64,000 nucleotides of DNA from Escherichia phage vB_ESM-pEJ01, in sequence record OP114734.1; one strand, 5' to 3'. Positions within the stretch are counted from its first letter, which is position 1. Every line of letters begins with the position of its first letter. Both the position numbers and the translations under genes were made by a program. Shown piece after piece: positions 589-4,074 of this stretch. Below the pieces are notes generated by a model, which ran no database searches, was not told where the DNA came from, and saw only the letters and a program-made list of their open reading frames with translations.

Positions 589-609
589 AATATAATCCTC
601 ACATATTAA

Positions 610-813
610 TTAACCGTATACGCGAAAGTATTCTACTGATCCGTCGCTATACTGTTTTACATTGAATGTATTCACACCATGATTATTTCTCATGATGACA
701 TATACACTGCGACGTTCATCGCTAAACGGCATAACTGGCGCTGGTTCAATATCAACACTAAAACCACGTTTAGCAAGTGCTTCGCCTAATTGCTTGATTT
801 TATCGGTAAACAT
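610..813 (-). CDS. hypothetical small protein
   Basis: 67 aa track ORF tightly packed between pseT and cd in the same orientation. Confidence 0.4.
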   Translation of the reverse strand: MFTDKIKQLGEALAKRGFSVDIEPAPVMPFSDERRSVYVIMRNNHGVNTFNVKQYSDGSVEYFRVYG

Positions 814-1712
814 TAAAAGTCTCCGTAGTTAACCTGAAAACATTCTACACCAATTGAGCGGTACATGTCAACCACTTGATCACGGTCATCTACCGCCAAA
901 ACAACATGATAACGCGGTGCAATTTCAGAGAAGAAAATCTCTTTCTTCACTTCATGATCAGGACGACGATCATTAGTTTCACGTTGAAAGTGATCACTCG
1001 GTTCAATACCCTGTTCACGCAACCATTGCAGAGTATCTTCTTCGCAAACATCCTCACGCCCTGAGCATGTAATGATACGATAACCATTATCACGATACAG
1101 TTTAAGCATTTCGATCACTTGCGGACGCGGTTTATCTTCTTTGACCTTTGTCCAGTCAAACGGATGACGACCGCCCTTATCCGCTAATGTTCCATCAATA
1201 TCAAAGATCACTGCCTTCGGCAGCATGGTATTCGGTTTGTATACTTCTTGACCCATATATTCCTGGGTCAGATAAAATTGGTTACGCAAATGAGAAAGTG
1301 GAATTGCTTTCTCGCCTCGATAGAAATTACGTTTCTTTAGTGTCTCAAATGATTCATTGAACACTTGTTCAGTATACACCGCGTTAAATTCTTTTGCAAG
1401 TTCTTTGTAGAATACACGATGTTTTTCTTTCAGGTTAGTATCAGAGATAATGATACTTAATCCGCGTGATAGAGTCTCACGAGCAATCATTCTCTGAATA
1501 GACTCTACCAGTTTTTCTTTTTCCTTAGTATACTTGTATTTCAAATGTGAGTCAACACCAAACAACATAAGACGAAGATCATCGCGATTCACATTACGAT
1601 AATTACTAAACCGTTTACACGTTTCCATAGCCCATGTAGTTTTACCGGACCCAGAACAACCAACGGTTAAAATCACTTCACATTTCGGCATTATTTCTCC
1701 TTCGGTTTGCAC
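813..1712 (-). CDS. pseT: polynucleotide 5'-kinase / 3'-phosphatase
   Basis: 299 aa; P-loop GCSGSGKTT at N-terminus, HAD motif DIDGTL, C-terminus VECFQVNYGDF matches remembered T4 Pnk end. Confidence 0.9.
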   Translation of the reverse strand: MQTEGEIMPKCEVILTVGCSGSGKTTWAMETCKRFSNYRNVNRDDLRLMLFGVDSHLKYKYTKEKEKLVESIQRMIARETLSRGLSIIISDTNLKEKHRVFYKELAKEFNAVYTEQVFNESFETLKKRNFYRGEKAIPLSHLRNQFYLTQEYMGQEVYKPNTMLPKAVIFDIDGTLADKGGRHPFDWTKVKEDKPRPQVIEMLKLYRDNGYRIITCSGREDVCEEDTLQWLREQGIEPSDHFQRETNDRRPDHEVKKEIFFSEIAPRYHVVLAVDDRDQVVDMYRSIGVECFQVNYGDF

Positions 1713-2143
1713 CGTTCCTCATTAAGTTCTTTTCGATAATAACACATGATCAACTTACTTTCAAGTGTATATCTCTTAATATCCGCAAGCCAGACTCTAA
1801 ATTTTTGGGAGTCCTCCCACGACATAGAAACTCTAGGTTTACCGTCTATTGTATCCACTTTCAGGTCAATGTCAACTTTTTCTATTGGTGCTGGTAGTGA
1901 AGGATGTAATTTCGGTTCCTGTGAATAATGGTCCAGTGTACACGAAGAAAGCGCAAATACAATAGGCACAGCGAATACATGGATTATGGCGGTCTGAAAA
2001 TTCTTATGTGCTTTCTTAAACATCCAGTGTATCGCAAAAATTGAAAACACCATCAGGATAATAATGCTTGCACCTATCCCCAGATAATCAACCAGATTAA
2101 AATTGCTTATCTGCTCTTGCGTAGGCAATATTTCTATGCTCAT
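1691..2143 (-). CDS. membrane protein with lipoprotein-like signal (candidate spanin partner)
   Basis: 150 aa; strong SD AAGGAGG 8 nt before the ATG; hydrophobic segment followed by KKAHK...AVPIVFALSSC lipobox-like motif; position equals T4 pseT.2/pseT.3 spanin locus. Confidence 0.35.
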   Translation of the reverse strand: MSIEILPTQEQISNFNLVDYLGIGASIIILMVFSIFAIHWMFKKAHKNFQTAIIHVFAVPIVFALSSCTLDHYSQEPKLHPSLPAPIEKVDIDLKVDTIDGKPRVSMSWEDSQKFRVWLADIKRYTLESKLIMCYYRKELNEERCKPKEK

Positions 2144-2463
2144 TTAGTAGCCTCCTTTAATTCTTCGGTAAACTCCTTAAATGAGTCATTAAGCTGTTTC
2201 TCTACCAACTTGGGTTTTTGTGCTACTACATAGCCTCGTGTAGCGTCTTTCATTGCTTTGTTTTGTTCTTCTGCAAACTTAGTTCTTATTCCGTACATCT
2301 CCTTTTGTAGTGAGTCTACGACCTTCATCTTCTCATCTGTCTTTTTCTTATACTCTGTAAATTCCTGATTCAGTCGATCTACCTCCTTTTTATTTTCCCA
2401 CCACATATTTCCACCTACCCCCAGCAACACAGAGATGATAACAATGTATACCAGCTTTGACAT
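2140..2463 (-). CDS. i-spanin-like protein (N-terminal TM plus coiled coil)
   Basis: 107 aa from MSKLVYIVIISVLLGVGG; single N-terminal TM then charged coiled-coil region; start re-set to ATG at 2463 to avoid overlap with rnlA. Confidence 0.4.
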   Translation of the reverse strand: MSKLVYIVIISVLLGVGGNMWWENKKEVDRLNQEFTEYKKKTDEKMKVVDSLQKEMYGIRTKFAEEQNKAMKDATRGYVVAQKPKLVEKQLNDSFKEFTEELKEATK

Positions 2464-2507
2464 ATTACCCCCAACGACAAAAGGCGGGGAACTAGCCCCG
2501 CTTATTA

Positions 2508-3677
2508 TTACCAATCAATCTTATCAGCCGGAATCAGTTTCTTATAATTCCGTAGATAGTAAGTTTTCATTGAATCCAGAATACGGTCATAATCAAGACC
2601 ATCAAATGCAATCATCAGACACATGAAAATATATGCTTGTGCATCACCATGTTTACGTGATTCGATAGTCGCATTTGATGCATATGTCTTTCTGTCTTCT
2701 CCCGCGTGTGCGTTATAAAATTCTGTTGCTGTCGTGAAGGCATTGCGAAGAATAGACCTGAATGCTTCCTCGAATAACTCGATTCGTTCCAGTGCTTCTG
2801 GTTCGCCTTCATATGCAGCACGCAAATCATCGGTTTCGCTTTCTACGACATAGTAGATCAGGTTATTAGGAAACATCGATGTGTTTTTAATGTTATGCAC
2901 ACCAATATACCATTCACTCTTCACCTTGAACAGTTGACCGTCTTTAGTGCGTGCAACAATTCCTTCGATACCTTCTGCGGTCCGAACTTCATCAAGAATA
3001 TTGCTAAAACGCGCTGAATCAACCTGTAGCGCATTTACCAGATGAGGACGTAGGATTGCGTCAGCAAATAGCATTTGATGCGGTACGTACTCTCCTGTGA
3101 CGTTATGGCGTACATTCAGAAGTGTTAGCGACGGTTCAGAATATTCTACAACAATTCGGTTGCTGGGTGCTGTATATTCAAAGTTGAAAGTATAATCAGA
3201 CCCAATATCAGCAATCTTAGCGCGTAGATCCGCATACTTCTCTGAATACAGAAGACCGTTTGCTCTCTCTGCCTGGCTTGAGTACAAGGCCGCTTTAGAC
3301 TTCAACTGAACATAGCCGGTATCAATGTATGTGCTTACTAGACTACCGTCCATTTTGTCCATGACCATTTCCACATCTTCCGGCTTAAAGCGAGCGCGAT
3401 CATTCTCACCCAAATTAAAAAACTTCTCCATAGGACGAGATGCAATGCGGACCGGACGACCTTTATCGTCAATTTCAAACATGATCCCGCGACACTCTAA
3501 CGCATCTGGTTTATTCCACATTTCAGGTTTGCTCAAGTACAGATAGCTAAAAATGCGCATACGGGTTTGCATCGCCGTAATTTCATCTTTGTAGTAGAAC
3601 GTATCAGATCCGTCACATAGTGCCATCAGATTTTTGAACAATACTAAAACTTTTTTGTTGTTTTCTTTTGTTGACAT
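2508..3677 (-). CDS. rnlA: RNA ligase 1
   Basis: 389 aa track ORF; strong colinear match to remembered T4 gp63 (LFKNLMALC, ECRGIMFE, RIASRPMEKFFNL); the track 5' end overlaps denA by 65 nt so the true start is probably downstream. Confidence 0.85.
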   Translation of the reverse strand: MSTKENNKKVLVLFKNLMALCDGSDTFYYKDEITAMQTRMRIFSYLYLSKPEMWNKPDALECRGIMFEIDDKGRPVRIASRPMEKFFNLGENDRARFKPEDVEMVMDKMDGSLVSTYIDTGYVQLKSKAALYSSQAERANGLLYSEKYADLRAKIADIGSDYTFNFEYTAPSNRIVVEYSEPSLTLLNVRHNVTGEYVPHQMLFADAILRPHLVNALQVDSARFSNILDEVRTAEGIEGIVARTKDGQLFKVKSEWYIGVHNIKNTSMFPNNLIYYVVESETDDLRAAYEGEPEALERIELFEEAFRSILRNAFTTATEFYNAHAGEDRKTYASNATIESRKHGDAQAYIFMCLMIAFDGLDYDRILDSMKTYYLRNYKKLIPADKIDW

Positions 3678-4074
3678 AATTTGTGTTCCATTCTGGTTTA
3701 AATTTGGTGATCAAAACAGGTTCTTCGATATCGGCAGTGCTTATAATATCCTTACCCGTTGGATTCTCAATATATAACTCAAAGCACTGACGGTAATAGA
3801 ATGTTACTGTCTTACCTTCCTCTAGCGCCTTATGAATATTCTTACTCTTGCGAGTATCCGCCGTTGGTGTTTGTCTGTTAATGCTAGTCCGGTAATAATT
3901 GATCCGCTTTCTGAGATTGACAGTCTGTCCAATATATACCAGTTCATCATCAACCACAATAGCATAAAGAACATTTAAACGGTTCTTCTGAGGCGGTAGA
4001 ATCACATCACCATCTTTACACTCTAAACATGAATATTTAACGAATCCATAGTTTTCTATTAGCTCATTAATCAT
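3613..4074 (-). CDS. denA: endonuclease II (GIY-YIG)
   Basis: 153 aa; NVLYAIVVDDELVYIGQTVNLRKRINYYRT matches remembered T4 EndoII almost residue for residue; SD GAGGAAAGG upstream. Confidence 0.85.
   Translation of the reverse strand: MINELIENYGFVKYSCLECKDGDVILPPQKNRLNVLYAIVVDDELVYIGQTVNLRKRINYYRTSINRQTPTADTRKSKNIHKALEEGKTVTFYYRQCFELYIENPTGKDIISTADIEEPVLITKFKPEWNTNYVNKRKQQKSFSIVQKSDGTM

Follow-up and report, generated by a model that had tools for sequence, protein, structure and literature searches.

Spanins span the periplasm and, after the peptidoglycan has been cleared by holin and endolysin, fuse the inner and outer membranes, as established for Rz/Rz1 of phage lambda. The question raised by the locus described here is how the outer-membrane component of such a pair (o-spanin) can carry its lipobox deep inside the protein, behind a second hydrophobic stretch. 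The locus lies in a 64,000-nucleotide stretch of Escherichia phage vB_ESM-pEJ01 (record OP114734.1), referred to as a whole as the window, and consists of two small minus-strand open reading frames (ORFs) adjoining pseT: ORF 2140-2463, a homologue of pseT.3 and the candidate inner-membrane component (i-spanin), and ORF 1691-2143, a homologue of pseT.2 and the candidate o-spanin. We find that the best overall explanation is a T4-type spanin pair with an extended, processed o-spanin precursor, to which we assign a probability of about 0.6. What is new is that the 'too long' signal of the RB49-type o-spanin appears to be a translated, clade-specific and selectively maintained segment, predicted to form a membrane hairpin, and not a mis-called start or noise.

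The spanin pair and the layout of the o-spanin precursor

By its nucleotide sequence, the window is that of an RB49-like phage of the T4 family (Krischvirus): bases 600-3700 have 98-99% identity to 58 Krischvirus genomes, including RB49, Phi1 and JSE as well as many recent E. coli and Shigella isolates. The two ORFs are almost certainly a T4-type spanin pair, a view that draws on family matches, alignments and gene position. The i-spanin matches PHROG 739, 'Rz-like spanin' (E = 8.7e-27), and T4-type PseT.3 of RB14 (32% identity, BLASTP E = 3e-13). Similarly, the o-spanin matches PHROG 812, also 'Rz-like spanin' (E = 1.1e-31), in a match restricted to residues 53-150, and is 48% identical to T4-type PseT.2 of RB14 (BLASTP E = 7e-24) in an alignment spanning both of the cysteines that are essential in T4. 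Close homologues of the o-spanin carry PF26831 (Phage_T4_Spanin), which was not returned in a Pfam search with the window's own o-spanin. The i-spanin gene is directly followed by the o-spanin gene, which is not embedded in it, with a 4-nt ATGA overlap, the same 'separated' architecture as in T4. The gene order rnlA-pseT.3-pseT.2-pseT also matches that of T4, where rnlA/alc and pseT flank pseT.3 and pseT.2. An earlier note, made from the letters of the window, had proposed a spanin-like pair next to pseT at these positions; both ORFs are present on the minus strand in the ORF listing, and the proposal agrees with the family matches and the T4 gene order. The pair itself is already known: those of RB49, Phi1 and JSE are catalogued in the T4 i- and o-spanin families of the spanin database as 'sep, -4', and T4 PseT.3/PseT.2 complement the lambda Rz/Rz1 double amber defect (Kongari et al. 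2018, PMC6139136).

The i-spanin has the layout that the earlier note had read from it. Residues 4-20 are its sole N-terminal hydrophobic segment, the protein contains no cysteines, and AlphaFold2 (AF2) predicts a nearly wholly helical structure (H3-81 and H85-105; predicted local distance difference test score, pLDDT, 80). The T4 i-spanin consists of a transmembrane domain (TMD), alpha1, a short linker and alpha2 (Kongari et al. 2018, PMC6139136), and ORF 2140-2463, which has the same predicted layout and likewise lacks cysteines, is on these sequence and model features a T4-type i-spanin, PseT.3. A start at 2514 was rejected as a mechanical TTG version of the ORF, which would run through the terminator-like hairpin at 2501-2484. 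The annotations of RB49 (NC_005066.1, 3041-3307) and JSE (546-812) start pseT.3 at an internal Met, giving a protein of 88 aa with no TMD.

In the o-spanin, Cys134 and Cys145 are invariant across the alignments, and their T4 PseT.2 counterparts, C87 and C98, are essential for lysis (PMC6139136). In the AF2 model, a disordered tether (residues 68-93) leads into a beta-hairpin (94-107), which is followed by a long helix (109-144), and this mature fold agrees with the published description of the T4 o-spanin (PMC6139136). The C-terminus is hydrophilic, and the only extra helix is N-terminal to the lipobox.

It is this N-terminal region that sets the protein apart. We compared seven extended lineages, consisting of the window, RB49 and five diverged metagenomic homologues (62-82% identical, 151-155 aa) whose loci were retrieved. 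The lipobox Cys is residue 68 in the window and lies at residues 68-73 across the clade, whereas in all other PseT.2-family members examined it lies at residues 16-37, behind one hydrophobic stretch. A single signal peptide of 15-23 residues is found in T4-type phages, in Karamvirus and Mosigvirus and in the nearest un-extended relatives (P0010-P0014), and among about 90 PseT.2-family clusters the longest alternatives show just a long n-region. The extension begins with an N-tail that bears a conserved motif, L6-P7 ... F15-N16-L17, followed by a strongly hydrophobic first helix of 22 residues (L21-F42), which opens with an invariant G-x-G. A basic loop then leads into a second helix, in which the h-region (residues 48-64, NFQTAIIHVFAVPIVFA) precedes the lipobox (residues 65-68, L-S-S and then Cys68), with Thr69-Leu70 at positions +2 and +3. 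The PROSITE-type lipobox pattern ([LVI][ASTVI][GAS]C) is matched in all seven lineages, L-S-S-C is invariant, and there is no Asp at +2. Thus, the lipobox-like segment KKAHK...VFALSSC that the earlier note had pointed out ends in a recognizable lipobox Cys, and the upstream sequence with an additional hydrophobic stretch that had made the o-spanin look atypical (42 residues, including L21-F42) is real and conserved.

The extended precursor has been noticed earlier but never analysed. The anomaly was recorded solely in the supplementary spreadsheet of Kongari et al., as a 'too long' signal, and is absent from the text of that paper; the further 'too long' entries of the spreadsheet have signals of 33-48 residues with long charged n-regions and no second helix (PMC6139136). 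A literature search on o-spanin N-terminal extensions, Krischvirus spanins and 'internal lipobox' returned nothing beyond these curator notes.

Translation and selection of the extension

Comparison of the seven lineages makes it very probable that the extension is translated and selected. In each of them, the o-spanin ATG overlaps the i-spanin stop codon (ATGA) behind AAGGAGG, AAGGAGA or AGAGAGG; in the window this is a perfect AAGGAGG, 7 nt before the ATG, the strong Shine-Dalgarno sequence that the earlier note had reported. The un-extended nearest relative (L011) has the same ATGA coupling, placed directly ahead of an ordinary signal peptide. The frame of the extension is open in 7/7 lineages, while the two other forward frames contain 2-6 stops, and differences in the length of the extension among lineages are whole codons.

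The pattern of substitutions is that of a coding sequence under constraint. Between two of the metagenomic lineages (L009 and L010), 21.5 of 27.7 synonymous sites in codons 2-42 are changed, but only 4.5 of 98.3 nonsynonymous sites (Nei-Gojobori). Similarly, pooling of three independent pairs over the same codons yields a proportion of synonymous differences (pS) of 0.73 against a proportion of nonsynonymous differences (pN) of 0.20 (Fisher p = 9e-20). The dN/dS ratio of the extension is 0.2-0.3 where dS is unsaturated, and differences at third positions exceed those at first and second positions (p = 5e-10). The synonymous and third-position biases rule out the extension as a non-coding spacer. 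The invariant residues of the extension are L6, P7, F15, N16, L17, G22, G24, M31 and F42, and the alignment also indicates selection on the unusual His55 and Pro60 inside the h-region.

The same architecture is found in cultured phages: the first 67 residues are unbroken in 58/58 cultured Krischvirus records, with 92-99% identity. Since an architecture of 150-155 aa is retained in these 58 phage records and in the five more diverged metagenomic lineages, ORF 1691-2143 is not due to chance. From the start signals, reading frame, substitution pattern and conservation taken together, we conclude that the 150-aa reading is the real o-spanin product. Selection on the extension further means that it does something, either before or after cleavage.

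In the same gene pairs (drawn from the window, L004, L006, L007, L009 and L010), synonymous divergence is greater in the extension, with a pooled pS of 0.73, than in the mature domain, with 0.42-0.63. One cause could be constraint on the nucleotide sequence close to where pseT starts; another could be mosaic recombination inside the gene.

Predicted topology and processing of the precursor

The distribution of charge and hydrophobicity in the extension is consistent with a helical hairpin. In all seven lineages the N-tail has a net charge of -1 to -3 and the loop a net charge of +2 to +4, which, by the positive-inside rule, predicts a periplasmic tail and a cytoplasmic loop. We compared the membrane segments by a crude biological hydrophobicity sum, with scale values attributed to Hessa et al. 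2005. Helix 1 (-0.5 to -4.1) is more hydrophobic than the i-spanin anchor (+0.05 to +1.7) in every lineage, and helix 2 (+0.6 to +3.7) is comparable to the ordinary signal peptide of the un-extended relative L011 (+3.1). The AF2 model of the precursor shows a helix-turn-helix over residues 17-67, with moderate confidence. A reading of helix 1 as a signal-anchor-release (SAR)-type, membrane-escaping helix was rejected, as it is too hydrophobic. The residue at +2 is Thr or Ser in all lineages, and sorting to the outer membrane is therefore expected.

We regard a hairpin topology with cleavage by signal peptidase II (LspA) as the probable arrangement, based on these features of the sequence. Helix 1 would insert as a reverse signal-anchor with the N-tail in the periplasm, the basic loop would remain cytoplasmic, and helix 2 would cross back as an internal type-II signal peptide that presents the lipobox at the periplasmic face of the membrane. 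Lgt would then lipidate Cys68 and LspA would cut before it; Lol would carry the resulting ordinary lipoprotein of 83 aa to the outer membrane, while a two-helix peptide of 67-72 aa would stay in the inner membrane. After processing, the pair would act like any T4-type spanin: inner-membrane PseT.3 and the outer-membrane lipoprotein PseT.2 would bridge the periplasm and fuse the membranes at the end of lysis.

Several points weigh against this proposal. The PROSITE positional rule places the Cys within the first 35 residues, and the Cys of the full-length o-spanin lies well beyond that limit. According to the curators of the spanin database, LipoP scores the RB49-type o-spanin only if it is started at MFKKA (PMC6139136). 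The N-tails of two lineages (L004 and L007) hold one or two basic residues, and the AF2 model of the o-spanin, built from 10 sequences, has a mean pLDDT of 67, which is moderate confidence. In addition, a full-text search for 'internal lipobox' returned nothing, and we found no documented natural LspA substrate with an upstream transmembrane helix.

Among the alternatives, the one that survives best, which we nevertheless consider unlikely, is that the extension serves purely in targeting: a very hydrophobic helix 1 would recruit the signal recognition particle (SRP) or YidC for co-translational insertion, and the leftover peptide would be degraded. In favour of this, the h-regions of ordinary lipoproteins fall far short of helix 1 in hydrophobicity. 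However, pure targeting leaves both the invariant tail motif (L-P ... F-N-L) and G-x-G unexplained, and some 90 other family clusters manage without an extension. Because selection is seen on the tail motif, on G-x-G and on His55/Pro60, we think that the hairpin does more than targeting. Tentatively, pseT.2 could even be a two-in-one gene, which encodes both the o-spanin and a functional peptide of two helices (about 7.5 kDa) that sits in the inner membrane with a periplasmic N-terminus, although we think this rather doubtful. Such a released peptide may, for example, restrain spanin activity or the timing of lysis, or may act on the envelope like the stable signal peptide of colicin release proteins.

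Cleavage is dispensed with in a second alternative, in which the precursor stays in the inner membrane as a two-helix protein with its PseT.2 domain in the periplasm and in which, for example, both partners are inner-membrane proteins until a trigger. Helix 1 would be a stronger anchor than that of the i-spanin, and the standard predictors used by the curators give no lipoprotein on the full-length protein (PMC6139136). Yet the invariance of L-S-S-C and of a small uncharged residue at +2, despite diverged flanks, is hard to explain without lipidation of Cys68, and the mature domain, the length of the tether and both cysteines are those of an ordinary outer-membrane PseT.2. We consider an uncleaved precursor improbable.

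The use of two start codons is familiar from phage lysis genes, and a third alternative is that a long form started at codon 1 regulates a short form started at codon 41 (an 'anti-spanin'), by analogy with lambda S107/S105. Codon 41 is ATG in five of the seven lineages, including the window, directly before the canonical n-region. However, it is ATT or ATA in the other two and TTG in JSE, such that the internal start is not conserved in a clade in which the extension is conserved. No Shine-Dalgarno sequence was found before codon 31 or codon 41, and codon 41 thus has no ribosome-binding site; moreover, known dual-start motifs lie a few codons apart, not 40. We therefore rejected an internal start at Met41, and also at Met31, which is invariant but lies mid-helix, has no Shine-Dalgarno sequence and would yield an atypical signal. 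The window's phage itself may have a dual start, but the clade as a whole does not conserve one, and as an explanation of the extension we give it little weight. Finally, that the o-spanin is mis-annotated and really starts at Met41 (MFKKAHK..., a 27-residue signal), with the 40 upstream codons an open, untranslated spacer, is essentially excluded. In its favour, a protein started there would satisfy the lipoprotein rule, with Lys as residues 3 and 4 and Cys as residue 28; this start gives the only good LipoP score of the curators (PMC6139136), and the signals of all other family members have 15-23 residues. Against it, the 40-46 codons upstream of Met41 carry the synonymous bias (p = 9e-20) and conserved motifs, their indels are all in frame, and they are free of stops in the seven lineages and the 58 phage records. 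The perfect Shine-Dalgarno sequence and ATGA coupling are located at codon 1.

If the proposed processing of the extended precursor is correct, the concept of a lipoprotein precursor widens, and predictors that demand an N-terminal lipobox miss such proteins. The o-spanin would also be a naturally occurring substrate on which to test the ability of Lgt and LspA to act on an internal signal, and might add a layer of control to the last step of lysis in phages that are widely isolated for therapy. If the two-in-one reading is true, LspA would here naturally process an internal signal that follows a membrane helix, and if the released peptide is functional, PseT.2 would provide the first example, among phage lysis proteins, of a functional transmembrane pro-region.

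Origin of the extension, its locus and related systems

Judging from sequence searches, the extension is confined to the Krischvirus-type clade and has no homologue elsewhere. In a tblastn search of 50,697 phage records (E <= 10), queries with the extension of the window and with the most diverged one returned only the same 58 Krischvirus records, and scans of IMG/VR and metagenome contigs returned only near-identical relatives. When 1.84 billion representative proteins were searched with a 48-position profile of the extension, the only matches were its own clade and one other protein (P0015, E = 5e-5); we rejected the latter as a homologue, since it is a four-fold repeat protein with the motif FRGFNLTDPLGxGAS in a soluble repeat, and the match was judged coincidental. 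Pfam gave only sub-threshold noise on the first 67 residues of the o-spanin. A Foldseek search against BFVD gave a weak match (E = 5e-3, 38% identity, 61 columns) to a 'membrane protein' of 63 aa from Escherichia phage vB_EcoM_005. Since this protein was recovered by neither the tblastn nor the profile search, we treat the match as probably a generic two-helix similarity.

We also considered where the extension might have come from. A duplication of the signal peptide was rejected, as an alignment of helix 1 with helix 2 scores no better than shuffles, and no paralogue of the extension was found elsewhere in the 64-kb window (best tblastn E = 0.36). Fusion with a neighbouring T4 gene (alc, pseT.1 or RB32ORF217c) was also rejected, as those sequences are soluble and unrelated. 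There is a faint likeness between the un-extended N-termini (M-IWRGL) and ..DLWNGL / ..ELWNFL of the two most diverged extended forms, a hint in the sequence that a new segment might have entered directly behind the old N-terminus; a stretch of five residues does not amount to evidence.

Other long or unusual proteins were examined as extended forms and rejected: P0084 (140 aa) has a long n-region and a single hydrophobic stretch, the proteins of CkP1 and ESCO47 are ordinary 96-aa proteins, and the 150 aa of Shigella phage Sf25 are due to an internal duplication. In the latter (gp77, P0016), a T4-type PseT.2, 51 residues (ILSIGLLVGC...GKAWV) are repeated in tandem, which may be an assembly artefact or may be real and make two lipoboxes. 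A further protein, P0009 (108 aa, from a 3087 bp ENA contig), is 95% identical over residues 1-80, i.e. the extension and signal, and then continues in unrelated sequence; it probably derives from a chimeric or frameshifted metagenomic contig.

The features of the locus are collected in the table. On the minus strand the order of genes is nrdB, denA, rnlA, the two spanin ORFs, pseT, cd.2 and cd, and the T4 genes alc and pseT.1 are missing at this locus in the Krischvirus clade. The start of pseT is joined to the stop of the o-spanin gene by a TAATG overlap, which is part of a chain of overlapping stops and starts that runs through pseT.3-pseT.2-pseT-cd.2 (610-2463, minus strand) by way of ATGA, TAATG and a shared base at 813; this chain suggests that translation of the spanins is coupled to that of the RNA-repair genes. 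The terminator-like hairpin at 2484-2501 lies between the rnlA stop and the ribosome-binding site and start of the i-spanin, and it is kept 5' of the i-spanin in 8/8 related lineages, including one with an ordinary o-spanin. The spanin genes are thus downstream of what is likely an attenuator or RNA-stability element.

Annotations of this region vary. In its longest version (389 aa), the rnlA ORF shares 65 nt (3613-3677) with the end of denA; rnlA of relatives is annotated as 354, 372 or 389 aa, and thus the rnlA start is uncertain in Krischvirus. The record of vB-Eco-KMB43 (1292-1741) has no coding sequence annotated for the o-spanin, and other records label both spanin genes 'hypothetical'. 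For annotation of Krischvirus genomes, the 150-aa ORF should be retained, and pseT.3 should start at the upstream ATG that includes the TMD.

Table. Positions of the spanin genes, their parts and neighbouring features in the window
Feature	Position	Strand	Evidence
i-spanin PseT.3, 107 aa	2140..2463	minus	phrog_739 E = 8.7e-27; BLASTP to RB14 PseT.3
i-spanin N-terminal membrane anchor, residues 4-20	2404-2454	minus	hydrophobic 17-mer from residue 4
Shine-Dalgarno-like GGGGG, 4 nt 5' of i-spanin ATG (GGGGG-TAAT)	2468..2472	minus	sequence reading; conserved in all lineages
o-spanin precursor PseT.2, 150 aa + stop	1691..2143	minus	phrog_812; BLASTP to RB14 PseT.2
Shine-Dalgarno AAGGAGG, 7 nt 5' of o-spanin ATG, inside i-spanin 3' end	2151..2157	minus	
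Extension N-tail, residues 1-20, MSIEILPTQEQISNFNLVDY, net charge -3	2084..2143	minus	alignments, invariant columns
Extension helix 1, residues 21-42, LGIGASIIILMVFSIFAIHWMF	2018..2083	minus	hydrophobicity sums, Kyte-Doolittle segments, AF2 helix 17-44
Basic loop KKAHK, residues 43-47, equivalent to lipoprotein n-region; predicted cytoplasmic	2003..2017	minus	net charge
Helix 2, residues 48-67, h-region and lipobox A-L-S-S before Cys68	1943..2002	minus	lipobox pattern, AF2 helix 47-67
Mature o-spanin Cys68-Lys150, 83 aa (predicted)	1694..1942	minus	alignments, AF2
o-spanin Cys134, counterpart of T4 C87	1742-1744	minus	alignment to T4-type PseT.2
o-spanin Cys145, counterpart of T4 C98	1709-1711	minus	alignment to T4-type PseT.2
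Terminator-like GC hairpin GCGGGG-CTAGTT-CCCCGC, then CTTTTG	2484..2501	minus	terminator scan
denA	3613-4074	minus	
rnlA	2508-3677	minus	
pseT, polynucleotide kinase/phosphatase; context gene outside the spanin	813..1691	minus	phrog_505 E = 2.6e-114; RB49 annotation
cd.2	610-813	minus	
cd	82-588	minus	

Several known systems share single features with the extended o-spanin. Lambda S107/S105 has two possible in-frame starts with products of different membrane topology; a gene of this type is expected to have two conserved, usable starts, whereas the internal start here lies 40 codons downstream, is unconserved and lacks a ribosome-binding site. The unimolecular spanin T1 gp11 likewise has a lipoprotein signal and a transmembrane helix in one polypeptide, but its helix is C-terminal and stays attached, such that one chain spans both membranes, while the helix here is N-terminal to the predicted cleavage site and a separate i-spanin is present, which sets the pair apart from the T1 gp11 type. 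The colicin and cloacin lysis proteins provide a precedent for a lipoprotein-precursor signal peptide that persists in the inner membrane with a permeabilising activity of its own; in the account of van der Wal et al. (1994, 1995) given in PMC5727409, the cloacin DF13 release protein has a stable LspA-released signal peptide with envelope activity. That signal peptide is one short helix with no homology to the o-spanin extension, and a similar function for the peptide here is a hypothesis.

The closer parallels are with two-component spanins. Lambda Rz/Rz1 shares the functional logic of an inner-membrane type II protein and an outer-membrane lipoprotein in the last step of lysis, but sequence homology to it is not expected, here the genes are separated and not embedded, the disulfide arrangement is different, and the Rz1 signal is short and ordinary. 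T4 PseT.3/PseT.2 (PF26831; PHROGs 739 and 812) shares homologous domains, genome position, the ATGA overlap, a cysteine-less i-spanin and the two C-terminal cysteines of the o-spanin, with a mature o-spanin of 83 aa. The Krischvirus-type pair differs from that of T4 in the position of the lipobox Cys, at residues 68-73 as against 16-23 elsewhere, and in the conserved acidic tail and true transmembrane helix that precede the signal.

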